Shown here: in pieces, positions 4,947 through 40,239 of the stretch | Position numbering within the stretch: the stretch's first letter is position 1 | Layout: each line of letters starts with the position of its first letter | Virus record (IMG/VR): IMGVR_UViG_3300040801_001158 | Span: 9,359-73,358 of that record | DNA from: a virus | Taxonomy: Duplodnaviria; Heunggongvirae; Uroviricota; Caudoviricetes | Direction: 5' to 3' (one strand) | Length of the DNA stretch: 64,000 bases | Notes under the pieces: generated by a model | Told to the model about the DNA's origin: nothing | Database searches by the model: none | The model's input: only the letters and a program-made list of their open reading frames with translations | Program-made: the position numbers and the translations under genes

Positions 4947-5855
4947 ATGAGTAGTCTTTTAGATAAAATGTTAAAATCCGGCTCAATCAAACAAGCAGGT
5001 GTTGTAAATAAATCTGCATTCTTTGATGAAAAGGTACCAATTCAAACGGAGTTGCCTATTGTAAATATTGCATTTAGTGGTTCTTTAAATGGTGGATTAA
5101 TCCCAGGTCTTACTGTTGTAGCAGGTGCATCAAAAAGCTTCAAAACTTTACTATGTCTATATTGTATGAAAGCCTATCTTGAAAAATACAAAGATGGCAT
5201 TGCTTTATTATATGATTCAGAATTTGGTATTACACCAGATTATTTAGAAAGTTTTGATATTGATACGTCACGAGTATTGCATATTCCAATCGAAGATGTT
5301 GAGCAACTAAAATTTGATATTTCTAAACGTTTAGAAGAAGTTGGGAAAAACGATAAAGTATTCATTATGATTGATTCTATCGGTAACCTTGCTTCTAAAA
5401 AAGAAGTTGAAGATGCAATGAATGAAAAGTCAGTTGCCGATATGTCACGCGCTAAACAACTCAAATCGTTATTCCGTATCATAACTCCTAAACTAACAAC
5501 GAGAAATATTCCATGTTTGGCTGTAAATCACATCTATGCCGAGATTGGACTCTTTCCTAGGAATATCGTCTCTGGTGGGTGTGTTGTTGAAGGTACAGAA
5601 ATCCAAACACCGGATGGTCTAGTTGAAATACAGAACATTAAGGAAGGCGATGTAATCACAACAAACTATGGTACAAACACAGTTAGTCATATTTGGAATC
5701 CTGATACGTTAGAAGAAGGTAACCCTGAATGTTTCGAAGTTATGTTTGAAGATGGCCATAAAGTAGTTTGTTCCGCCGAGCATAAATTCTTAATTGGTGG
5801 AAAGTGGATATCAGCGGAAAATCTATCTGTTGGAATGGAATGTCAAACAGTATAA
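4947..5855 (+). CDS. uvsX: UvsX recombinase N-fragment fused to split-intein IntN
   Basis: RecA fold (GASKSFKT Walker A, DSIGNL, VNHIY); after SGG an intein N-part begins (CVVEGTEI, 5580; CSAEHKF block B) and ends at a stop. Confidence 0.93.
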   Translation: MSSLLDKMLKSGSIKQAGVVNKSAFFDEKVPIQTELPIVNIAFSGSLNGGLIPGLTVVAGASKSFKTLLCLYCMKAYLEKYKDGIALLYDSEFGITPDYLESFDIDTSRVLHIPIEDVEQLKFDISKRLEEVGKNDKVFIMIDSIGNLASKKEVEDAMNEKSVADMSRAKQLKSLFRIITPKLTTRNIPCLAVNHIYAEIGLFPRNIVSGGCVVEGTEIQTPDGLVEIQNIKEGDVITTNYGTNTVSHIWNPDTLEEGNPECFEVMFEDGHKVVCSAEHKFLIGGKWISAENLSVGMECQTV

Positions 5856-5866
5856 TTTGTCATTTT

Positions 5867-5909
5867 TATAAATAATAGTATCTATGGTTATCATACTTAA
5901 GGTACTATT
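5867..5909 (+). promoter_or_regulatory. Late promoter plus RBS-sequestering hairpin
   Basis: TATAAATA 5867-5874; stem 5874-5883/5900-5909 covers AAGGT. Confidence 0.65.
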
Positions 5910-6599
5910 ATGAAATATAAAATAATGATAAAGACTCACTCTAAAACGAAATTAAAATACTTATGTGTAACTCATAATGAAGATTATGAAAAATATAAGG
6001 GAAGCGGTTTATATTGGAAGAATCATTTAAAAATACATGGATCTGAATATATTGATACTGAATTACTATATGAAACCGAATGTAAGGAAGAATTGAGAAA
6101 TAAAGGATTATATTATTCTTCCTTATATGATGTTGTTGAAAGTAGTGAGTGGGCAAATCTGATACCAGAAACTGGCTATGATTACGATGGTATTACTAGG
6201 GATGGGTGGTTCGGCTGGTATAATTCTTTATCTGATGCTGAAATAAAACAAAGAAACTTAAATATTTCAGCTAAAGTTAGAGAAAGATATGCTAACGAAG
6301 ATCCCGAAAAAATATCTAAAGAGCAACGAAATAGAAGATTAAATATGTCACCGGAAGCAAAAGAAAGAAGAAAGAAGAAAATTCAGGAGGTTTGGGCCAC
6401 TGGTAAACATGATCATTTATTTGAACGTTATTCTAAAGAAAGACAAGGCTCTAACAACCCAGGCGCAGTTTCCGTAACAATAGAAGGTGTCGCTTATGGC
6501 AGTATTAAAGAAGCGTGTGATGATTTAGGATTAACTAGATCCATGATTAATACGAGATTAAATTCAACATCAGAAAGATGGAAAGAGTGGGTGAAATAA
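5910..6599 (+). mobile_element. Free-standing GIY-YIG-like homing endonuclease between split-intein halves
   Basis: KYLCVT...YKGSGLYWKNHLKIHG degenerate GIY-YIG; C-terminal NUMOD1/HTH-like YGSIKEACDDLGL. Confidence 0.75.
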
Positions 6600-6764
6600 A
6601 TGATAAACTTTGATTCTTTAACCGAAACAACTAAAGAAAGCTATTATATGAAAGCGGAGGATATGATTAATAATGGATTGACATCAGACACTTTTATTGA
6701 TATAATAGCGTTAGCTAAAAAGCTATATGTAAATGACATAAGGAAACAAAATGAAAATAGTTAG
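6600..6764 (+). CDS. Small hypothetical protein inside the uvsX insertion (54 aa)
   Basis: MINFDSLTETTKESYYMKAEDMINNG...; ATG abuts the nuclease stop and the ORF overlaps the IntC start. Confidence 0.55.
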   Translation: MINFDSLTETTKESYYMKAEDMINNGLTSDTFIDIIALAKKLYVNDIRKQNENS

Positions 6765-7293
6765 TGTAAAACCGGTTGGCAGAAACCCGGTATATGATTT
6801 ATCAATTGCTACTGAAAATTATGATGAGCAGCATTACGTACTTAAAAACGGAGTGGTAACGCATAACACTGGAATTTACTATTCCGCAAATCAAATCTTC
6901 ATTATCAGTAAAGCCCAGGAAAAAGAAGGTACTGATTTGGCAGGTTGGAAATTTACTATTAATATTGAAAAGTCAAGATTCGTTCGTGAAAAAGCAAAAT
7001 TACCTTTCACTGTGTTATATGATTCAGGTATTCAAAAATGGTCTGCATTATTCGATTTAGCAATAGAATCTGGTCATATAGCAAAAGGTTCAACAATGGG
7101 TTGGTATAATGTCGTGAACCGCGAAACCGGTGAATTAATTGAGCCTAAACGTCGTGCCAAAGATTTAGGTGCTGATGAAGAATTTTTTGAAGGTCTTGTT
7201 AAAGATGCAGACTTTAATAAATTCATTGAGCGTAAATATAAATTGACAATACCTGGAAAAATTGAAGATGATGGAAACGACGATATTATCTAA
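6751..7293 (+). CDS. uvsX: Split-intein IntC fused to UvsX C-fragment
   Basis: MKIVSVK..VYDLSI...NGVVTHN (6751-6867), then TGIYYSA matching the UvsX continuation SGG-TG..YSA. Confidence 0.93.
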   Translation: MKIVSVKPVGRNPVYDLSIATENYDEQHYVLKNGVVTHNTGIYYSANQIFIISKAQEKEGTDLAGWKFTINIEKSRFVREKAKLPFTVLYDSGIQKWSALFDLAIESGHIAKGSTMGWYNVVNRETGELIEPKRRAKDLGADEEFFEGLVKDADFNKFIERKYKLTIPGKIEDDGNDDII

Positions 7294-8735: not shown

Positions 8736-10058
8736 ATGATGAATTTTAAAGGCTACTTACAAGAGACATCGCAAAACATCATGTTAGAAGCCTCTTTAAG
8801 GAAAAATCAACAAGAGCTAAAAAACTATATAAAGAAAAAACTGAAAGGTGTTAAGTTCACTAATTCAAGCCGAGGCGCGTATCATATACGTTTCCCAATG
8901 AATGGAACGGATTTAGAACTTGCAAATATTTTTAGAAAATATGACTTGGAAATTCTTGAATATGATAAAGCGCCAATATCATCTAAATTCCCAACTTCAG
9001 TCTTAAGACTTACTAAAAATATTTCAACAGATCTTGTAGCTGGTACTGAAATACCTTGGGTAAATAACTCATCTGCTGCGGCCGTTACTGGTGCGCAGCT
9101 TTTTGGTAACAAAGATCTTAATCCTGATAGTTTAGGTTTAGCTGGCAAAACTTTAAAAAGTTCTCAGATTATAGCTGAAATTACACCATACTTACAAAAT
9201 AAATACGATGCAAAAGTTGCAAACGAATTAATTGGCATGGCAGAGGCTGCAAGATCAGTTGGTTCAAAAATTGATTATACTAACTCATTTTCCAAGAAAG
9301 ATCTTGCAAAGGTATCTGCTGACTTTGGCGAAATACTCTCTGCTATCTGGGCTGAAACCAATCTTTCATTCAAAGCATGCTACTTTCCTGTAGCAAGCAA
9401 TGAAGCTCTAATTGATTTTTATGGAATGCGTTTAGGCATACCGTATCCAATATCAGTAAAATCTGGTGCTGGTGGTAAAGTTACTGTTCAGAACATCATA
9501 GATTCAATTAACAATAGATCAAAAACTGCAACAACTGCTGAATTGACAAACGAACCTTCTTTGGCAATATTTAAAATTGTAAATGATATGCCTATGAAAG
9601 AACAGATGTTTGAATTGCACAAATATATGAAAACCGAAGCAATAATATTACTTGCTAAGATTATGGATATTGATGTATCAAGTATCAATTTAAAAACTGT
9701 TCTCGATTTTGTAAACAGTTTTGAAGAACAGGAAGATCTGATAAAAACATTGGAACCATTTTGGTCACTATTGAATATGAATCTTACCGATAGAATTAAA
9801 CAAGGTGACGATAGATTGAGATTGGTCTTATCTCCTTTAGGTGAATCTATTTGGAAAATTCTTAATAATGATCAAGAAATAAAAGATTCTTTAACACGAG
9901 TTGCTAGGCAAGTTGCGCTCATTCAGATTAACGTTGATGTAACAAGCAAACAAATCAGGTTTAAAAACAACAGATTTAAAGATGCATCATTTCAATTTGG
10001 CTGGGCTGGATATGCTGCCAAAAATAAATTGGGATTTAAAATGAAGGTTAAAAGATAA
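8736..10058 (+). CDS. Hypothetical virion protein, possible PD-(D/E)xK nuclease fold
   Basis: Capsid-targeting-like N-terminus MMNFKGYLQE; DFGEILSAI...LIDF...ISVKSG. Confidence 0.45.
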   Translation: MMNFKGYLQETSQNIMLEASLRKNQQELKNYIKKKLKGVKFTNSSRGAYHIRFPMNGTDLELANIFRKYDLEILEYDKAPISSKFPTSVLRLTKNISTDLVAGTEIPWVNNSSAAAVTGAQLFGNKDLNPDSLGLAGKTLKSSQIIAEITPYLQNKYDAKVANELIGMAEAARSVGSKIDYTNSFSKKDLAKVSADFGEILSAIWAETNLSFKACYFPVASNEALIDFYGMRLGIPYPISVKSGAGGKVTVQNIIDSINNRSKTATTAELTNEPSLAIFKIVNDMPMKEQMFELHKYMKTEAIILLAKIMDIDVSSINLKTVLDFVNSFEEQEDLIKTLEPFWSLLNMNLTDRIKQGDDRLRLVLSPLGESIWKILNNDQEIKDSLTRVARQVALIQINVDVTSKQIRFKNNRFKDASFQFGWAGYAAKNKLGFKMKVKR

Positions 10059-32314: not shown

Positions 32315-33205
32315 ATGGATAGACAATATAAAGAAATGTTAGCATACGTGCTACACAATGGCGATTATAGAAAAGACCGAACTAGTGTTGGCACAATTAG
32401 TGTATTCGGATATGAAACAAGATTCGATTTAAGTAAAGGATTCCCTGCAGTTACAACTAAAAAATTAGCATGGAAATCTGTTGTAAGTGAATTACTTTGG
32501 ATGTTAGAAGGTTCACAAAACGAAAGAAGACTTGCTGAACTTTTATATGGTGAACCACGTTCATTATTATCAAATAAGAAAACAATATGGACAGAAAACG
32601 CCGATAAACAGGGTAAAGAGCTTGGTTACGCAAATAACGAACTTGAAAAAGGATTAGGCCCAGTTTACGGCTCACAATGGCGTAATTGGTATAATGGCGA
32701 AACAAACAATTATTATGACCAAATTAAAGACTTAATTTGGAATCTTAAAAATGATCCACGTTCTAGGAGACATATATTAACGAGCTGGAACGTTGGTGAA
32801 ATTGACCAAATGGCATTACCACCGTGTCACTTCGTGTGCCAATTTCATGTTATGAATAATAAACTAAGCTGTAAACTTAATATGAGATCTAACGATCTAT
32901 TTTTAGGAGCACCTTTTAATATAGCAGGATATGCATTATTGACTCATATCCTAGCAAGAGAATGTGGATTTGAAGTTGGTGAACTTGTCTATTCAATAGG
33001 TGATGCGCATATATATAGTAATCATGTTGAACAAGTACAAGAGCAATTAAAACGAGTACCTTACGACATACCAACATTACAAATTGACAAAAACTTCGAT
33101 TTGCAAACTGGATTAAGTAAAGGGTTTAGCAATAAAACAGTTGACATGTTTAAGTTAATAGATTATAATAGCCATCCAGCAATAAAAGCACCAATGGCGG
33201 TATAA
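32315..33205 (+). CDS. td: Thymidylate synthase
   Basis: DRTSVGT, LGPVYG.QWR, MALPPCH, RSNDLFLGAPFN; no intron. Confidence 0.97.
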   Translation: MDRQYKEMLAYVLHNGDYRKDRTSVGTISVFGYETRFDLSKGFPAVTTKKLAWKSVVSELLWMLEGSQNERRLAELLYGEPRSLLSNKKTIWTENADKQGKELGYANNELEKGLGPVYGSQWRNWYNGETNNYYDQIKDLIWNLKNDPRSRRHILTSWNVGEIDQMALPPCHFVCQFHVMNNKLSCKLNMRSNDLFLGAPFNIAGYALLTHILARECGFEVGELVYSIGDAHIYSNHVEQVQEQLKRVPYDIPTLQIDKNFDLQTGLSKGFSNKTVDMFKLIDYNSHPAIKAPMAV

Positions 33206-33221
33206 ACAAATTGGAGAATAA

Positions 33222-34853
33222 ATGAGTACAATAAAAGTAACGAAACGGGCAGGGCATCAAGAGCCTTTTGATATTGAAAAAGTGCATAAAGTACTTGAAT
33301 GGGCTGCCGAAGGTCTTACTGGTGTTTCTATATCAGAAGTAGAACTGAGAGCAAATCTACAATTATATGATGGGATACCAGCATACGATATCCATGAAGT
33401 ATTGATAAAAAGCGCAGCTGAATTAATATTAGAAAGTACTCCAAACTATCAATATCTTGCTGCAAGGTTAATTAATTATAAACTACGTAAAGAGGTATAC
33501 GGCCAGTATGAACCGTGGTCTTTATCACAGATTATAGATTTCAATGTTCAGATTGGGGTATATGATGACCAGATATTAGAAAAATATACTCAAGAAGAAA
33601 TAGAAAAGTTAGATTCTTATATTAAACATGATCGTGATGCAGAATTTACTTATGTTGCAATGGAGCAAATGCGTGGTAAATATTTAGTACAGAATCGCAA
33701 AACTGAAACTACATATGAGACACCACAGGTTCTTTATATGATGGTTGCGGCAACATTGTTTTCAGAATACCCGCGAGAAACAAGAATACGATATGTTAAA
33801 GATTTCTATGATGCAACATCGCAGTTTTTTATATCTTTACCTACACCTATCATGGCCGGCGTTCGTACATCTATTCGTCAGTTTAGTTCTTGTGTATTAA
33901 TTGAATCCGGTGATAGTCTTGATTCAATTAATGCAACTGCGTCAGCTATCGTTAAATATATTTCAAAGAAAGCAGGTATTGGCATAGGAGCAGGTCGCAT
34001 TCGCGCGATTGGTTCAAGTATTGGCGACGGTTCAACGATACATACTGGACAAATACCATTCTTAAAATATTTTCAATCGGCAGTTAAGAGTTGCAGTCAG
34101 GGTGGCGTTCGTGGTGGCGCAGCAACTACGTATTTCCCAATATGGCATAAAGAATTTGAAAACCTTGTCGTATTAAAGAATAACAAAGGTACTGATGAAA
34201 GTCGAGTTCGTCAAATGGATTATGGTTTTCAATTCAATAAACTAATGTATGAACGTTTATTATCAGGTGGTGATATTACATTATTCTGTCCTAATGATGT
34301 TCCTGACCTATATGACGCGTTTTATGCCGACCAAGAGTTATTTGCAAAGCTTTATGTTAAGTATGAAAAAGATAAATCAATTGATAAAAAGACAATGAAA
34401 GCAATGGATGTATTTGTTCAGTACATATCAGAACGTAAAGACACTGGCCGCATCTATTTGCAAAACGTTGACCATGCGAATGACCATGGTTCTTTTTTGC
34501 CTAACCTTGCACCAATTCGCATGAGTAACCTTTGTTTGACATCTGACACAAAGTGTGATATAATGGTAGATGATGTTCCGATGTGGGGAATTCCTATTAC
34601 AGAAGTTATTGAATATGTTAAAGGACTAAAATACGTTAAGATTAGTTCATACGATATTGACAGTGACACTTATGTTTATAAGTCAGTTACCGATGGTAAA
34701 ATGACTGGACAAAATCGTGAATTGCTTGAAATTGAAGATGAGGCGAGTGGTTATAAAATTACTTGTACACCTTGCCATTTAGTATACACAAAAAATCGTG
34801 GTTATGTTGAAGCAGGTAAATTAGTTGAGACTGATGAACTTTTGTTACAATAA
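33222..34853 (+). CDS. nrdA: RNR class Ia alpha fragment 1 plus IntN-1
   Basis: ATP cone, PTPIMAG, FSSCVL, GVRGG; after RMSNL the intein starts (CLTSDT, 34533; CTPCH block B). Confidence 0.95.
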   Translation: MSTIKVTKRAGHQEPFDIEKVHKVLEWAAEGLTGVSISEVELRANLQLYDGIPAYDIHEVLIKSAAELILESTPNYQYLAARLINYKLRKEVYGQYEPWSLSQIIDFNVQIGVYDDQILEKYTQEEIEKLDSYIKHDRDAEFTYVAMEQMRGKYLVQNRKTETTYETPQVLYMMVAATLFSEYPRETRIRYVKDFYDATSQFFISLPTPIMAGVRTSIRQFSSCVLIESGDSLDSINATASAIVKYISKKAGIGIGAGRIRAIGSSIGDGSTIHTGQIPFLKYFQSAVKSCSQGGVRGGAATTYFPIWHKEFENLVVLKNNKGTDESRVRQMDYGFQFNKLMYERLLSGGDITLFCPNDVPDLYDAFYADQELFAKLYVKYEKDKSIDKKTMKAMDVFVQYISERKDTGRIYLQNVDHANDHGSFLPNLAPIRMSNLCLTSDTKCDIMVDDVPMWGIPITEVIEYVKGLKYVKISSYDIDSDTYVYKSVTDGKMTGQNRELLEIEDEASGYKITCTPCHLVYTKNRGYVEAGKLVETDELLLQ

Positions 34854-34860
34854 TTAATTA

Positions 34861-34930
34861 TGTTTCGTAGGTAGAGAAATTTCATAAATTATAAATAAAA
34901 TTATAACGAAATAAATCTACTTACGAGGCA
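34861..34930 (+). promoter_or_regulatory. Late promoter in the loop of a 15-bp RBS-sequestering hairpin
   Basis: Stem 34861-34875/34916-34930 covers GAGG; TATAAATA 34890-34897. Confidence 0.75.
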
Positions 34931-34935
34931 ACTAA

Positions 34936-35655
34936 ATGTTTATTGTATACGAACATACTAATTCTATTAACGGTAAAAAATACGTGGGATATACGTCAAA
35001 AACTATTAGCGAAAGATTACACAAACATTATACAAATGCAATGGGCGGAATGGATAATCATTTTTATAAAGCAATACGCAAATATGGTTTGGGTGTTTTT
35101 GAATCTAAAATAATTGGTGAATATCTTACAAGGGAAGAAGCAAAGACTAACGAAATTCGCTATATCGAAGAATGTAATTCTTTTAAAGAAGGTTACAATA
35201 TGACAAAGGGTGGAGATGGTGGTTGGGTTGTTCCTGATGAAAAATACGATTCTTGGGTTCAGAAAATATCTGAAACGAGTACAATGGAAAATAATAGTAG
35301 GTGGTCTGGTATAAGCGATGATAAAATACTTGAACTTGCTAGAGAATATTATTTAGAATACGGTCATCAAATGGGTATTAAAAAGTTTATGGATTGGGGT
35401 AATGAAAATCATTCAATACCAAAGTCCTTTTCAAAAAATCGATTTGGTGGAAAAACTCTAAAAGAATCTTATTGTGAAAAATATAATATTGACCCTAAAG
35501 AAATAAGATATGTTAAAACAAAAGAACACAAGGAAAGTTTGTCTACTGCTGGTACTGGTAAACATTGGTACTATAATGATCAAACTAAAACTAATAAACA
35601 ATTTTTAACTCCACCAAACAATGAGTGGAAACTAGGACGAATTACATGGGAATAA
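34936..35655 (+). mobile_element. GIY-YIG homing endonuclease between IntN-1 and IntC-1
   Basis: IVYEHTNSINGKKYVGYT..R, FYKAIRKYG, E, GYNMTKGG. Confidence 0.9.
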
Positions 35656-36635
35656 AAATTACGAAATTAACACGCAGAGAAGATGTATTTGACATAACAG
35701 TTGAAGGTACACATAACTTCTTTGCAAATAATATATTAGTACACAACTGTGCTGAAGTTGACTTGCCAACTAAACCATTAAGCGATATTAATGATCCCGA
35801 CTCCGAAATCAGTTTATGTACGCTTTCAGCAATAAATTGGGGTTTAATAAATGATCCTTCCGAATTTGAAAAGTACTGTGACTTAGCTGTTCGCGCTTTA
35901 GACGAATTGCTGGATTATCAAAAGTATCCTGTTCTTGCTGCTGAAAATTCAACAATGAATAGACGTCCACTTGGGGTTGGTATAATCAACCTTGCTTATT
36001 TTCTTGCAAAGCGCGGGCTTAAATACGATTCTGAGGCATTAGCGACAATTGATGAATACGCGGAAGCATGGTCTTATTATCTGATTAAGACAAGTGCAAA
36101 CCTTGCAGCCGAAAAAGGTAAAATTCCTCTTAATCATGAAACGAAATACGGTCATGGTATTCTTCCAATTGATACATATAAGAAAGATGTTGACGATTTA
36201 ACTCAACGTATTGAAAGAATGGATTGGGAAGGGTTACGCAATCAATTAAAAGAAACTGGTATTCGTAACAGTACTTTGATGGCTCTTATGCCTGCTGAAT
36301 GCCAATCTTTATATAATAAAATTTTAACTGAAGATGGTGGTGTCATGCTAGGTGAATTTATTACATTAAATTCTAATATAGATATCAACAAAGTGCACGA
36401 AACTGGTATACCAGGACAAAGATTTGAATTTAGAAAACCTGTTAAACTTGGCGACGGGTCTACTGCGTATGAATGCTATTATAATGGTTACCAAGAATTA
36501 ACTGAGATTGAGTTTGAAGATGGTAATGTTTATAAATTCACAGGTAACCATCAATTGAAGGTTATAAGAGAAGGTAAAGAAATTTGGGTTACTGTAGACA
36601 ATTTACTTGAAACTGACGATGTGATTGTAATCTAA
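35646..36635 (+). CDS. nrdA: IntC-1 plus RNR alpha fragment 2 plus IntN-2
   Basis: VFDITVEGTHNFFANNILVHN (ends 35747)|CAEVDLP; RRPLGVG; STLMALMPAE|CQSLYN (36300) with FTGNH block B. Confidence 0.93.
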   Translation: MGIKITKLTRREDVFDITVEGTHNFFANNILVHNCAEVDLPTKPLSDINDPDSEISLCTLSAINWGLINDPSEFEKYCDLAVRALDELLDYQKYPVLAAENSTMNRRPLGVGIINLAYFLAKRGLKYDSEALATIDEYAEAWSYYLIKTSANLAAEKGKIPLNHETKYGHGILPIDTYKKDVDDLTQRIERMDWEGLRNQLKETGIRNSTLMALMPAECQSLYNKILTEDGGVMLGEFITLNSNIDINKVHETGIPGQRFEFRKPVKLGDGSTAYECYYNGYQELTEIEFEDGNVYKFTGNHQLKVIREGKEIWVTVDNLLETDDVIVI

Positions 36636-36644
36636 CTGTATTAT

Positions 36645-36688
36645 CTGTTATGCCAAATAACATATTTTTATAAATAATTGCATAACAG
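36645..36688 (+). promoter_or_regulatory. Late promoter within a hairpin upstream of the second nrdA nuclease
   Basis: CTGTTATGC 36645-36653 / GCATAACAG 36680-36688; TATAAATA 36669-36676. Confidence 0.65.
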
Positions 36689-36707
36689 CTATATAGGTTA
36701 AATTAAT

Positions 36708-37826
36708 ATGAACAAGATATCACTCGGTAAAAAAATATTCCAATATAAAAATGCGACTGATGAAGAAATAGAAATATATTGTGATCTAATTAAATTGGAT
36801 CCTAGTTATGTTAGAGAAATTTCTAAAAAGATAAAAAACTACAGAAAGTATTTTGAGCATTACACTCGCTTTGGTGATAAAGTAACGATAGAAAAATTTC
36901 TATCACGCCCAATTACATCAAATAGTAATAAAATTGCAGAACATTATGGTGTTAATGTAAAAAAGAAAATACGCAGGAATGTATATGATCCAGAATACAT
37001 TTCCAGACGTGAAGGAATTACTTTTAGCGAAGCGGAAATTTATATAGAAAAATACAAAAATAATAAGTCAACATCTTTAGCTAATTTTATCAAAAGATAC
37101 GGTGAAGAAGAAGGATTGAAAAAATACGACATGTGGTATAGTAAATCTTTAAAGAAAGGTCACGACCCTAGTCTAAATAAAATTAAATCCAAATTTTCAA
37201 AACATTATTATTTAAAACGCGGTTTTAGTGAGTGTGAATCAATAGAAATGGCCAATCAATATCAATACCAGAATAGCCCGCTTCACATTGAATATTACAC
37301 TCTCCGCGGTTTGGATATTGATTCAGCAAGAAAAAAGATCCGTAAAATACATGACAAAAAAATAGGAATCGATTCTTATAGACAAAAATTAGAAAAAGAC
37401 GGGTTGACATCTTTAGAAATTAATGATATAATAAAAGATTCTAAAGGTTACTTCACCAGAATAAAATTAGGCGATGACAAATTTGAGGAAATATTATCTA
37501 AAATTAGAAATACATTTGAATTGAATGGTAGATGGATACCTCTTGAAGATATGTCAGACTATGAATTATATCGTAAGAGTGTTTGGTTCTTTACAAATCA
37601 AAATGAATTATGCGAGCTCAAAAATTTTGAAAAAAGAGGTTTGGCTGGAGTTGAAGGTGCCTACCAATTAGACCACAAATATTCGATACTTACAGGATAT
37701 ATTAATAGTGTACCACCAGAAGTAATAGGTTCTTTACCAAATTTGGAATTTATACCGTGGTTGGAAAACGTAAAGAAACAATCAAAATGTTCTATAACAA
37801 TAGAGGAATTAAATGAAAATCAATAA
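36708..37826 (+). mobile_element. Putative HNH-type homing endonuclease between IntN-2 and IntC-2
   Basis: C-terminal YQLDHKYSI...NLEFIPWLENVKK; Lys/Tyr-rich N-terminus. Confidence 0.7.
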
Positions 37827-38316
37827 AATCAAAAGAAATATCACAAAGGAACATACCTGGGACATATCGACAGATACTGAACAGTATGCACTATCAAACG
37901 GGTGCATCAGTCATAACACGTCTGCTCAAATTTCCAATAGCACGAATGGAATTGAACCACCTAGGGGGTTTATAAGTTACAAACAAAGTAAAGATGGTGT
38001 CATGGCTCAAGTTGTCCCTGGCTATCATAAGTTAAAGAATAAATATGATTTACTATGGGACCAGGAAGATCCTACTGGTTATTTAGAGATTTGTGCAGTA
38101 TTGCAAAAATGGATTGACCAGGGTATTTCTGTAAATACGAGCTACAATCCTGCAAAATTTCCAGATGGTAAAGTTCCAATGTCACGTCTAATAAAGGACA
38201 TTGTTACATTTTATAAACATGGTGGGAAGCAACTATATTATAACAACACATTTGATGGTGCCGGTGAAATAGATACGGGCGACGATGATTGCCCAGACGG
38301 TGCTTGCAAAATTTAA
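37813..38316 (+). CDS. nrdA: IntC-2 plus RNR alpha fragment 3
   Basis: MKINKIK...TWDIS...NGCISHN (ends 37917)|TSAQISNSTNGIEPP; QKWIDQGISVN; KQLYY; C-terminal CPDGACKI. Confidence 0.95.
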   Translation: MKINKIKRNITKEHTWDISTDTEQYALSNGCISHNTSAQISNSTNGIEPPRGFISYKQSKDGVMAQVVPGYHKLKNKYDLLWDQEDPTGYLEICAVLQKWIDQGISVNTSYNPAKFPDGKVPMSRLIKDIVTFYKHGGKQLYYNNTFDGAGEIDTGDDDCPDGACKI

Positions 38317-38330
38317 CGTAAGGAACATAA

Positions 38331-39470
38331 ATGTCTGTATTTACAAAAAGGACAGAATCTCATCTCTCATCAAATATGTTTTTTGGTGAGGGAGTTGACA
38401 TTGCCAGGTACGACCAAGTTAAGTATCCATCCCTTGAAAGGTTAACTTCTACCATGCTAGGATTTTTTTGGCGCCCAGAAGAAGTAGATATCACAAGAGA
38501 TAAATCAGATTTTGCAAAACTTTCTAATAGAGAAAAACACATCTTCACTGCGAATTTGAAAAGACAGATATTATTAGATAGTGTACAAGGTAGAGGTCCA
38601 ACTGAAACCTTTATGCCTATCGCTTCATTACCAGAAATAGAACCTTTAGTTCAAACTTGGGCGTTTATGGAGACAATACATTCAAGATCATACACTCATA
38701 TTATAAGAAATATCTACCCTAATCCTAGCGCAGTTTTTGACACAATGCTGGATATAAAAGAAATAGTTGACTGTTCTAACAGTATATCAAAGTACTATGA
38801 CGATTTTATTGAAGCGTGCAAATGGTATCAGCTATTAGGTGAAGGCCGATATAAAATTCTTAATAAAGTAACTCAAGAAGAAACATTTGTTAATGTAAAT
38901 CTTTACGAAATAAAAAAGAAATTGTGGTATGCACTCAATTCAATCAATGTATTAGAAGGTGTTCGGTTTTATGTTTCATTCGCATGTTCTTGGGCATTTG
39001 CTGAAAACAAGAAAATGGAAGGTAACTCTAAAATTATTAAGTTCATTGCACGTGATGAAAATGTGCACTTAGCTGCATCACAAACAATAATTAAACTTTT
39101 AGTGAAGGAAGATACTGACTTTGCAAAAATCGCAGAAGAATCAAAAGAAGACATTATTAACATGTTTATCGAAGCAGTAGATCAGGAACGAGATTGGGCA
39201 AAATATTTATTTAAAGATGGAAGTATCTTGGGTCTAAACGAAAATATTTTAGTGCAATATATTGAATGGATTGCTACGAGGCGTATGAGGACTTTAGGTT
39301 ATCAATCTCCTTATACGGTTCAACAAGCAAATCCATTACCGTGGACTGAAAAATATATTGGTGGTGGTAATGTGCAGGTAGCTCCACAAGAAACAGAAAT
39401 ATCTAGCTATGTTATTGGCGGAGTAAACCAAGATATGACTGATGATAAATTATCGGAACTATCTTTGTAA
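38331..39470 (+). CDS. nrdB: RNR class Ia beta subunit
   Basis: FFWRPEE, LDSVQ, ETIHSRSY, EGVRFYVSF, RDENVH. Confidence 0.97.
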   Translation: MSVFTKRTESHLSSNMFFGEGVDIARYDQVKYPSLERLTSTMLGFFWRPEEVDITRDKSDFAKLSNREKHIFTANLKRQILLDSVQGRGPTETFMPIASLPEIEPLVQTWAFMETIHSRSYTHIIRNIYPNPSAVFDTMLDIKEIVDCSNSISKYYDDFIEACKWYQLLGEGRYKILNKVTQEETFVNVNLYEIKKKLWYALNSINVLEGVRFYVSFACSWAFAENKKMEGNSKIIKFIARDENVHLAASQTIIKLLVKEDTDFAKIAEESKEDIINMFIEAVDQERDWAKYLFKDGSILGLNENILVQYIEWIATRRMRTLGYQSPYTVQQANPLPWTEKYIGGGNVQVAPQETEISSYVIGGVNQDMTDDKLSELSL

Positions 39471-39616
39471 TGGAAAAACCGATACTAAAAGAAGAGTCTG
39501 ATAACGAGATAAATTCTTGCTGTCAGACTTTATGTATTTCATCTGTAGTAAAAGAATATATAGAACAATTAGAACAAGAAATAAAAATACTAAAAGAGAG
39601 ATTAGGCGATGATTAA
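39470..39616 (+). CDS. Small coiled-coil hypothetical protein (48 aa)
   Basis: ATG overlaps the nrdB stop; KEYIEQLEQEIKILKE. Confidence 0.45.
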   Translation: MEKPILKEESDNEINSCCQTLCISSVVKEYIEQLEQEIKILKERLGDD

Positions 39617-39795
39617 TTTCAAGTCATCTATAACATAGAAAAACACCCGAGGTAAAGGTCTTACAATATTTGATATTGATGAGACATTATTTTAAACTAA
39701 AAGATAGTGAAGAGTATAATTATGGCGAATTTAGAGATGCTGATGTATTCGTAAACACATCTATTACTATAATGAAAATGATCGAAAAGGAAAGT
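39609..39795 (+). pseudogene. Decayed HAD-family hydrolase remnant
   Basis: MINFKSSIT*KNTRGKGLTIFDIDETLF*TK (DxDxT motif; stops at 39636 and 39693), then shifted EEYNYGEFRDADVF. Confidence 0.65.
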
Positions 39796-40239
39796 ATGAA
39801 AACACTATATGTAAGCAGACCATTAAAAAACGCAGAAGTTTTAATGGATTGGGCGGCTAAACAAGGTTTTAAGAAAACTATTGAGGAAGATCAATTCCAC
39901 GTGACGATTGCATTTTCAAGAGAAAAGATTGATTGGGATAAATTAGAACCACAAACTGAGATTATGACAGTCGCTGGTGGTAAGAGATTAGTTGAACCTC
40001 TCGGTGATGAAGGCGCAGTTGTACTTAAATTTAAATCTACATTTCTGCCTAAAAGATGGCAAGAAATAAAGGATGCCGGCGCAAGCTGGGATTATGAAGG
40101 TTATACTCCTCATGTTACAATTACATATAAAGGAACCGATATCGATCTATCAAAAGTTGAACCGTACACTGGTGAGTTAGTATTTGGCCAAGAGGTGTTT
40201 ACAGAACTTGACGAAAACTGGTCGGCGGATAAAGAATGA
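39796..40239 (+). CDS. acb1: Anti-CBASS 2H phosphodiesterase (Acb1/T4 57B-like)
   Basis: LYVSR, HVTIAFSR and YTPHVTITY twin HxT motifs, GASWDY, C-terminal NWS. Confidence 0.85.
   Translation: MKTLYVSRPLKNAEVLMDWAAKQGFKKTIEEDQFHVTIAFSREKIDWDKLEPQTEIMTVAGGKRLVEPLGDEGAVVLKFKSTFLPKRWQEIKDAGASWDYEGYTPHVTITYKGTDIDLSKVEPYTGELVFGQEVFTELDENWSADKE

Follow-up and report, generated by a model that had tools for sequence, protein, structure and literature searches.

A phage nrdA gene fractured at two sites and most likely joined by two different split inteins

Introduction

How can a phage obtain a working ribonucleotide reductase (RNR) if the gene for its large subunit, nrdA, is broken into three pieces? 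The question is raised by a 64,000-nucleotide stretch of DNA from an uncultured, T4-like member of the Caudoviricetes (positions 9,359 to 73,358 of the IMG/VR virus record IMGVR_UViG_3300040801_001158), which we analyzed as a whole and refer to as the window. In the nrdA region (33222-38316), there are five consecutive open reading frames (ORFs) on the + strand. The record, from a microbial-mat metagenome, is 137 kb long and about 75% complete according to CheckV.

A sequence-only reading of the window had proposed that nrdA is fractured by two split inteins, each holding a homing-endonuclease gene, and that the enzyme is assembled by the trans-splicing of three proteins, with the middle one splicing at both ends. 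Our analysis supports this proposal: NrdA is made as three proteins that are most likely stitched together by two different split inteins. The proposal understates the situation: across the population, the nrdA genes of this clade form a wider system in which as many as three sites can have a split intein, and the window shows just one of its states.

Results

An nrdA gene in three fragments

The five ORFs lie in differing reading frames, and each has its own Shine-Dalgarno (SD) sequence, start codon, and stop codon. Three of them encode fragments of NrdA, and the other two are free-standing endonuclease genes. Below, IntN and IntC are the N-terminal and C-terminal parts of an intein, numbered by site, and the parts of NrdA itself are the exteins. 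The features are as follows, with the evidence in parentheses.

33222-34853, + strand: fragment 1, NrdA 1-437 and IntN-1 (ORF of 543 amino acids)
33222..34532, + strand: nrdA extein 1, NrdA 1-437, ending in ...IRMSNL (E. coli L438) (PF03477, PF00317, and PF02867; alignment to E. coli NrdA)
34533..34853, + strand: IntN-1, 106 amino acids and stop, with Cys1 (CLTSDT...) and block B TPCH (phmmer match to 8ubs)
34861..34930, + strand: hairpin 1, outer stem of 15 bp, with TATAAATA in the loop at 34890-34897 (folding)
34936..35655, + strand: free-standing GIY-YIG homing-endonuclease gene, 239 amino acids (PF01541, 32.2 bits; phrog_314, 2e-23)
35646-36635, + strand: fragment 2, IntC-1, extein 2, and IntN-2 (ORF; Pfam barrel and intein matches)
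35646..35747, + strand: IntC-1, 34 amino acids, MGIKITKL...NNILVHN (Pfam Intein_splicing, positions 125-155 of 155)
35748..36299, + strand: nrdA extein 2, 184 amino acids, CAEVDLPT...LMALMPAE (E. coli C439-E623) (PF02867 positions 212-396; alignment)
36300..36635, + strand: IntN-2, 111 amino acids and stop, with Cys1 (CQSLYN...) and block B TGNH (contiguous relatives; conserved residues)
36636..36696, + strand: hairpin 2, stems of 9 bp and 6 bp, with TATAAATA in the loop at 36669-36676 (folding)
36708..37826, + strand: free-standing endonuclease gene, 372 amino acids, with a probable HNH-like C-terminal domain at about residues 300-370 (motif; AlphaFold2 model)
37813-38316, + strand: fragment 3, IntC-2 and extein 3, 167 amino acids (ORF; Pfam barrel match)
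37813..37917, + strand: IntC-2, 35 amino acids, MKINKIKRN...NGCISHN (motifs conserved in relatives)
37918..38316, + strand: nrdA extein 3, 132 amino acids, TSAQISN...CPDGACKI (E. coli T624 to the C-terminus) (PF02867 positions 460-522; alignment)

The ORFs, lengths, junction residues, and coordinates in the sequence-only reading were all exact. At both sites, IntN ends in a stop codon, an endonuclease gene on the same strand follows after a hairpin spacer, and the start of IntC overlaps the 3' end of the endonuclease gene. The non-coding spacers ahead of the endonuclease ORFs are 82 and 72 nt long. The overlaps are 10 nt (endonuclease 1 and fragment 2) and 14 nt (endonuclease 2 and fragment 3), and the SD sequences of fragment 2 (AGGA, 35634-35637) and fragment 3 (AGAGGA, 37802-37807) lie within the preceding endonuclease gene, as does each ATG. 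Extein 1 is preceded by the SD sequence GGAG. A GTG at 35625 is another conceivable start for fragment 2, but we discarded it, as the relatives begin at the ATG equivalent to 35646.

The joined exteins form a complete NrdA

Joining the exteins (437 + 184 + 132) gives a protein of 753 amino acids that matches E. coli NrdA (761 amino acids) from end to end, with 453 of 753 residues identical (60%). The joined exteins also align with an intact phage NrdA, and there are no gaps at either junction. In E. coli numbering, the breaks fall between L438 and C439 (site 1) and between E623 and T624 (site 2). That the exteins join seamlessly and at full length, and that the arrangement recurs in independent contigs, confirms the view that nrdA is fractured with two split inteins.

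By Pfam, extein 1 covers the ATP-cone, the all-alpha domain, and the beginning of the RNR barrel (profile positions 1-212). Extein 2 holds the thiyl-radical Cys439, Glu441, and Cys462, and extein 3 holds Tyr730, Tyr731, and the C-terminal cysteine pair. All of these residues are retained, as are C225 and N437. With these domains (ATP-cone, all-alpha, and barrel) and catalytic residues, the joined protein is a class Ia RNR alpha subunit by both Pfam and alignment. Furthermore, the 753 extein residues contain no frameshifts, no internal stops, and no missing catalytic residues.

Intein 1 interrupts the active site

Intein 1 has a complete set of class-1 splicing residues: C1, TPCH, and a terminal VHN followed by the +1 residue, which is Cys439 itself. 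In both inteins, the splicing residues are invariant across 29-32 relatives. IntN-1 aligns over 85 residues with the structure of the NrdJ-1 intein (8ubs; E = 1.7e-12), including the block CTPxHxVYTKNRGYV. NrdJ-1 (PDB 8ubs and 9omb) is an ultra-fast split intein used in protein engineering. A near-identical block (CTPxHxIYTKNRGYV) is kept in the equivalent fragments of five other loci, with blocks A and B conserved. IntC-1 matches the last 31 positions of the Pfam intein model and is conserved in 22 relatives; indeed, when fragment 2 is compared to PF14890 (49.5 bits, with a cut-off of 35.8), the best-scoring stretch is IntC-1. These sequence comparisons place intein 1 among the relatives of the NrdJ-1 split intein.

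Site 1 is the NrdA site of the seven fractured nrdA loci of Dassa et al. 2009 (PMC2677866). In several relatives, including Klebsiella phage KP13-7, the cut at site 1 lies one residue further downstream (SNLC / C-E), which is the position given for NrdJ (PMC2677866).

Cassette 1 (intein 1 and its endonuclease gene) may have moved recently. In the comparison to the closest relative (L093, whose middle fragment is 84% identical), the synonymous divergence (dS) of IntC-1 is 0.10 and the adjoining 3' end of endonuclease 1 is also near identical, while dS in the flanking exteins is about 1.3, which is saturated. Also, positions 34507-35519, which comprise IntN-1 and most of the endonuclease-1 gene, are matched at about 93% identity in marine metagenome contigs. 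(The marine match stops where the contig begins, 26 nt upstream of intein 1.) The low dS of IntC-1 and the marine match together suggest recent movement.

Intein 2 is divergent and under selection

Intein 2 also has the complete class-1 residues: C1, TGNH, and SHN followed by the +1 residue Thr624. Its C1, T..H, T-W-D, S-H-N, and +1 Thr are invariant in 32 relatives. Four lines of evidence indicate that IntN-2 and IntC-2 are two halves of one intein. First among them are three relatives (P0017, P0041, and P0067) in which the two parts are fused as an uninterrupted mini-intein between MPAE and TSAQ; the C-terminal part of this contiguous mini-intein is nearly the same as IntC-2 of the window. 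The invariant residues just described are another. A predicted complex of IntN-2 and IntC-2 also scored 0.82, while the best of three controls scored 0.00, with contact agreement between runs of at least 91% and a partner pLDDT (predicted local distance difference test) of at least 77. In calibration, 58 of 80 solved complexes but just 2 of 110 mismatched pairs scored at this mark; the score measures likeness rather than binding, and the existence of solved split-intein structures may account for the pass.

The remaining evidence is the ratio of nonsynonymous to synonymous divergence (dN/dS). Relative to L093, dN/dS is 0.131/1.286 for IntN-2, 0.036/1.318 for IntC-2, and 0.121/1.355 for extein 2, and these are not distinguishable. 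On these sequence comparisons, purifying selection acts on the halves of intein 2 with the same strength as on the exteins.

Among the inteins of Campylobacter phages there are distant relatives of IntN-2, with 38-42% identity across 62-66% of the query (E = 1e-4 to 4e-4). Inteins 1 and 2 are just 25% identical in their N-terminal halves and 32% identical in their C-terminal halves. Such low identity is expected if cross-reaction between the pairs must be avoided, and the two pairs are presumably orthogonal.

Two endonuclease families and their expression signals

Endonuclease 1 is clearly a GIY-YIG homing endonuclease by sequence: residues 2-88 match PF01541 well above the cut-off (32.2 bits, with a cut-off of 22.6), and the protein matches phrog_314, "homing endonuclease" (2e-23). 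In L084 and KP13-7, a homologue occupies this site, with 34% and 41% identity, respectively.

The second endonuclease was described as HNH-like in the sequence-only reading, and this was upheld in part: the motif and a weak fold match agree with it, but Pfam does not support it. The family has 2283 phage relatives, which share only the C-terminal 100 or so residues. Within it, 38 homologues all share R, D-H, S, N, N, and K, and in the AlphaFold2 model (pLDDT of 94) these residues lie on a beta-beta-alpha element. Structural matches are weak (Foldseek E of 0.25 or worse; VIA Z of 4.6 to 4h9d), but nearly all of them are HNH domains, including those of Cas9, Gme HNH, I-HmuI, and colicin E9. A search against Pfam gave no family, even at E = 10, and a few homologues match DUF7487. 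(A profile search of the PDB with this domain gave leucine-rich-repeat matches only, which are spurious.) Endonuclease 2 is probably HNH-like, given the motif and the modeled fold. It has homologues at the same site in L081 (50% identity), L084 (41%), and KP13-7 (27-28%). Each endonuclease family is tied to its own site, even in a locus as far removed as that of a Klebsiella jumbo phage.

Hairpin 1 is a strong predicted structure, with a minimum free energy (MFE) of -23.2 kcal/mol and a z score of -6.24; none of 200 shuffled sequences folded as well. Its 3' arm covers the SD sequence (GAGG, 34925-34928) of the GIY-YIG gene, and RNA that starts past the TATAAATA box of hairpin 1 has no fold. 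TATAAATA is a T4-type late-promoter box; one copy sits in the loop of each hairpin, on the coding strand and a short way upstream of the endonuclease gene that follows. It is this placement alone that is suggestive.

Fractured nrdA genes are widespread and variable

The middle fragment, with both intein halves and end-to-end coverage, is present in at least 22 other clusters of metagenomic proteins (at 90% identity) among the best 120 of 2336 relatives. Fragment 3 has 847 relatives of 91-293 amino acids, and the motifs of IntC-2 are kept in all 31 that we aligned over their N-termini (30 of them full-length).

The relatives vary in how many breaks they have and in what is left at each break. 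L084 has the same layout as the window. In L081-L083 (L081:2093-8549), nrdA is broken into four pieces and contains three split inteins, along with three endonuclease genes. The extra site in L081 (site 0) lies between KSC and SQGG (E. coli C292 and S293), and it has an atypical split, with an IntN of 24 amino acids and an IntC of 132. (This extra intein resembles the AceL-TerL type, which is used in peptide labelling.) L085 and L086 have splits without an endonuclease gene, and L094 has contiguous mini-inteins at sites 0 and 2, while site 1 is split and lacks an endonuclease. In L093 (1137-1290), endonuclease 2 is cut down to its last 110 nt or so (...NNVPPELIGSLSNLEFIPWLENIKKQSKCSIRIEELNE), and the remnant supplies the SD sequence and start of fragment 3. 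Although nearly all of endonuclease 2 is gone, the two halves of intein 2 are still there in L093, as are both reading frames.

Two finished GenBank genomes belong to this series. KP13-7, which is cultured, has both split inteins, their endonuclease genes, and one further break, and in its relative phiKp_21 the only fracture is at site 2. In two other relatives of these phages, RaK2 and K64-1, the match to extein 1 is not interrupted, and we infer that their nrdA genes are intact. The first break in KP13-7 (L091:1757-2453; OP617745.1 31756-32452) comes after KSCSQG and is an insert of about 700 nt with an ORF for a 128-amino-acid classical HNH protein. The next piece, as annotated, begins with MWHLE, so that neither piece accounts for about 13 residues of NrdA. 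No Rfam family matched the KP13-7 locus at gathering scores. This insert could be an intron or an intein-less break.

In another six relatives (P0022, P0024, P0030, P0035, P0037, and P0042), the middle fragment keeps IntN-2, and both IntC-1 and the CxE active-site loop are absent. In place of IntC-1 there is an N-terminal acidic leader of about 25-30 residues. The sequences suggest that these relatives have a split intein at site 2 together with a break that lies a few residues downstream of site 1 and, like that of Aeromonas phage Aeh1, has no intein.

Genomic setting

The operon order is frd-td-nrdA-nrdB, and a gp61-like primase gene, frd, and td lie upstream of nrdA. These genes make up the nucleotide-metabolism block of a T4-like phage, at about 33% G+C. 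The gene downstream of nrdA is:

38331..39470, + strand: nrdB (RNR small subunit), intact (identity inferred from its sequence and its position after nrdA)

A near-identity DNA search of the phage collection with the window gave no match.

The window contains a second fractured gene, uvsX (4947-7293). Its first part encodes UvsX-N and a 91-amino-acid IntN (CVVEGTE... from 5580). There is a TATAAATA box at 5867, and then an ORF for a 229-amino-acid endonuclease-like protein (5910-6599) with weak matches to NUMOD and I-TevI DNA-binding domains. The last part (6751-7293) encodes a 39-amino-acid IntC (...VVTHN, followed by TG) and UvsX-C. Across the three split-intein pairs of the window (one in uvsX and two in nrdA), the IntN halves are 23-32% identical and the IntC halves are 29-40% identical.

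Trans-splicing or another explanation?

Some of our results weigh against trans-splicing or against parts of the model. At site 2, the intein halves alone fall short of the cut-off of the Pfam intein model (19.7 bits for IntN-2 and 12.7 bits for IntC-2, with a cut-off of 35.8). A sequence search of the PDB with IntN-2 and IntC-2 found nothing significant (the best match of IntN-2, to block B of a DnaE intein, is at chance level, E = 0.65), and IntC-2, as read from its sequence, lacks the usual block-F histidine. Hairpin 2 is weak (MFE of -14.7 kcal/mol, z of -2.0), TATAAATA is not enriched across the AT-rich window (15 found and 14.2 expected), and one metatranscriptome run of the source sample contained next to none of the sampled sequence words. 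In favor of the model, we found no other RNR large-subunit gene of class I/II or III in the 137-kb record, although at about 75% completeness a second RNR may lie outside it. Finally, T4 nrd mutants are viable on normal hosts, so selection on a phage RNR may be weaker than "essential" implies. The enzyme had been called essential in the sequence-only reading; this holds for cells, but a phage may not strictly need an RNR of its own.

The dispensability of the T4 RNR on normal hosts also bears on whether this nrdA is simply a decaying gene, wrecked by selfish elements in a phage that relies on the RNR of its host. Indeed, a multiply interrupted nrdA in Campylobacter phages was read as degenerating (Dwivedi et al., PMC3653736). 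But the 753 extein residues of the window have no lesions of the kind that decay leaves (frameshifts, internal stops, or catalytic losses), dN/dS is about 0.1 or lower in exteins and intein halves, translation signals are kept for all three pieces, an intact nrdB follows immediately, and the layout persists across many divergent phages. We consider decay to be very unlikely. It is also unlikely, if slightly less so, that the inteins, at one site or at both, act purely as dimerisation handles, giving a non-covalent multi-chain RNR like NrdA-a/NrdA-b of Aeh1. In Aeh1, fragmented NrdA can be active without splicing (PMC2677866; PMC3045599), and the six relatives with an acidic leader instead of IntC-1 suggest that, in those phages, the break near site 1 is bridged without an intein. 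However, both breaks in the window have intein halves, and in both inteins the residues that are needed for the chemistry of splicing, beyond binding (C1, T..H, HN, and the +1 Cys or Thr), are invariant. Furthermore, an unspliced complex would keep about 140 extra residues in the catalytic finger loop, with Cys439 right after a bulky HINT domain.

As the source is a metagenome assembly, and as group I introns are frequent in phage RNR genes (PMC3653736), we also considered an assembly or sequencing error in a gene with two ordinary inteins, or repair at the RNA level by self-splicing introns around the endonuclease genes. Contigs from the source run span the nrdA region without a single difference, and the same layout is found in independent assemblies from several sources as well as in the two finished GenBank genomes. 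The five ORFs are in different frames with their own SD sequences, starts, and stops; Rfam gave no family at 32500-39800 of the window, even with E up to 1; and in-frame intein halves would not be accounted for by RNA splicing. We consider an artefact or an RNA-level repair to be extremely unlikely. Trans-splicing of three pieces is the likely reading, and none of the computational checks that might have refuted it did so: it is supported by the exteins, the splicing residues, the kinship of intein 1 with NrdJ-1, the contiguous form of intein 2, the selection on the intein halves, and the lack of any match to an RNA intron model.

Discussion

A model for the assembly of NrdA

We propose that nrdA was invaded at two sites by cassettes of an intein and a homing endonuclease, and that each intein became split by its free-standing endonuclease gene. 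Three polypeptides (Ex1-IntN1, IntC1-Ex2-IntN2, and IntC2-Ex3) would be translated, each from its own ribosome-binding site and most likely from one read-through transcript. IntN1 would pair with IntC1, and IntN2 with IntC2. In each pair, an acyl shift at Cys1 would be followed by attack by the +1 residue (Cys439 at site 1 or Thr624 at site 2), cyclisation of the terminal Asn, and a further acyl shift that yields the peptide bond. The product would be a scar-free NrdA of 753 amino acids. Since the break at site 1 falls within the active-site finger loop, immediately ahead of the radical cysteine, NrdA would lack activity until it is spliced. Early in infection, the hairpins would sequester the ribosome-binding sites of the endonuclease genes and so probably keep these genes silent; their expression would probably come late, from the TATAAATA promoters in the hairpin loops, as for I-TevI of T4 and mobE of Aeh1.

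On balance, we lean toward a broader conclusion as well: in infected cells, active NrdA is put together from three separately translated polypeptides by two split inteins that are orthogonal to each other (from four by three inteins in relatives such as L081), and this state is widespread, selected, and apparently undescribed.

Implications

Protein engineering relies heavily on split inteins. The ligation of three or more protein fragments requires split-intein pairs that do not cross-react, and until now researchers have had to combine such pairs themselves, from sources that are not related. Phages most likely use two or three different split inteins on a single protein already, and the sets should therefore have been selected to work side by side. 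If our proposal is correct, these phages supply pre-evolved sets of orthogonal split inteins. It would also mean that RNR activity may hinge on the efficiency of splicing, or on its redox sensitivity, at the radical cysteine.

Close relatives offer the full series of a fractured gene: an empty site, a contiguous mini-intein, a split intein accompanied by its endonuclease, and a split intein after the loss of the endonuclease. Because the series includes split inteins that have outlasted their endonuclease, it suggests that an intein, once split, is trapped even after the selfish nuclease decays. As KP13-7 is cultured and has relatives with fewer breaks or none, three-piece splicing and its fitness cost are directly testable.

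Comparison with known systems

Three kinds of system are already known: single fractured genes (since 2009; PMC2677866), genes with several contiguous inteins, and engineered tandem trans-splicing. Our literature search found no description of a natural gene with two or more split inteins; most papers in subscription journals were outside its coverage, so this is no proof.

The fractured genes of Dassa et al. 2009 (NrdA-1 to NrdA-7, NrdJ-1, and others; PMC2677866) are the closest precedent, and what the sequence-only reading had said of the literature matches that paper. These loci have the same layout on one strand: the N-terminal part with IntN, a hairpin spacer, an endonuclease gene, and IntC with the C-terminal part. 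Some encode a GIY-YIG endonuclease, as at site 1 of the window; the break in NrdA lies directly N-terminal to the thiyl-radical cysteine, again as at site 1; and gp41-7 is a locus without an endonuclease, comparable to L093. The arrangement of hairpin and late box in the window also matches the scheme given there for these loci and for mobE of Aeh1. In contrast, each of those loci is described as fractured in two, whereas the gene in the window has two cassettes and its relatives have up to three. The middle protein of the window thus begins with an IntC and ends with an IntN that is unrelated to it. The site between E623 and T624 and the HNH-like endonuclease family are not among their loci, in which the second endonuclease family is Vsr-like. 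Their spacers are 27-51 nt long, as compared to 82 and 72 nt in the window (PMC2677866). NrdJ-1 and intein 1 of the window both lie at or next to the radical cysteine of an RNR, but NrdJ-1 is in a class II RNR and one residue further downstream (PMC2677866), and the sequences have clearly diverged.

In nrdA-a/mobE/nrdA-b of Aeromonas phage Aeh1 (Friedrich et al. 2007; Crona et al. 2011, PMC3045599), a T4-like nrdA is broken by a free-standing homing-endonuclease gene, with the pieces in a single operon; a hairpin and late expression keep the endonuclease in check, as we propose for the window. Aeh1 NrdA assembles non-covalently and has no intein, whereas both breaks in the window have complete sets of splicing residues.

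Genes with several inteins have been described (PMC3322345, PMC10643990, and PMC6195587), and as in the window, these inteins lie in one gene of replication or nucleotide metabolism. Those inteins are described as lying within single genes and splicing in cis from one polypeptide, whereas the window encodes three separately translated proteins that must meet. The role of the middle fragment does have a parallel in engineered tandem trans-splicing (PMC7210297) and in a library of orthogonal split inteins (PMC7090010), where a middle fragment with the IntC of one pair and the IntN of another is ligated at both ends. The engineered systems are man-made mixes of inteins from different sources, whereas the combination in the window is natural and co-evolved in one gene.

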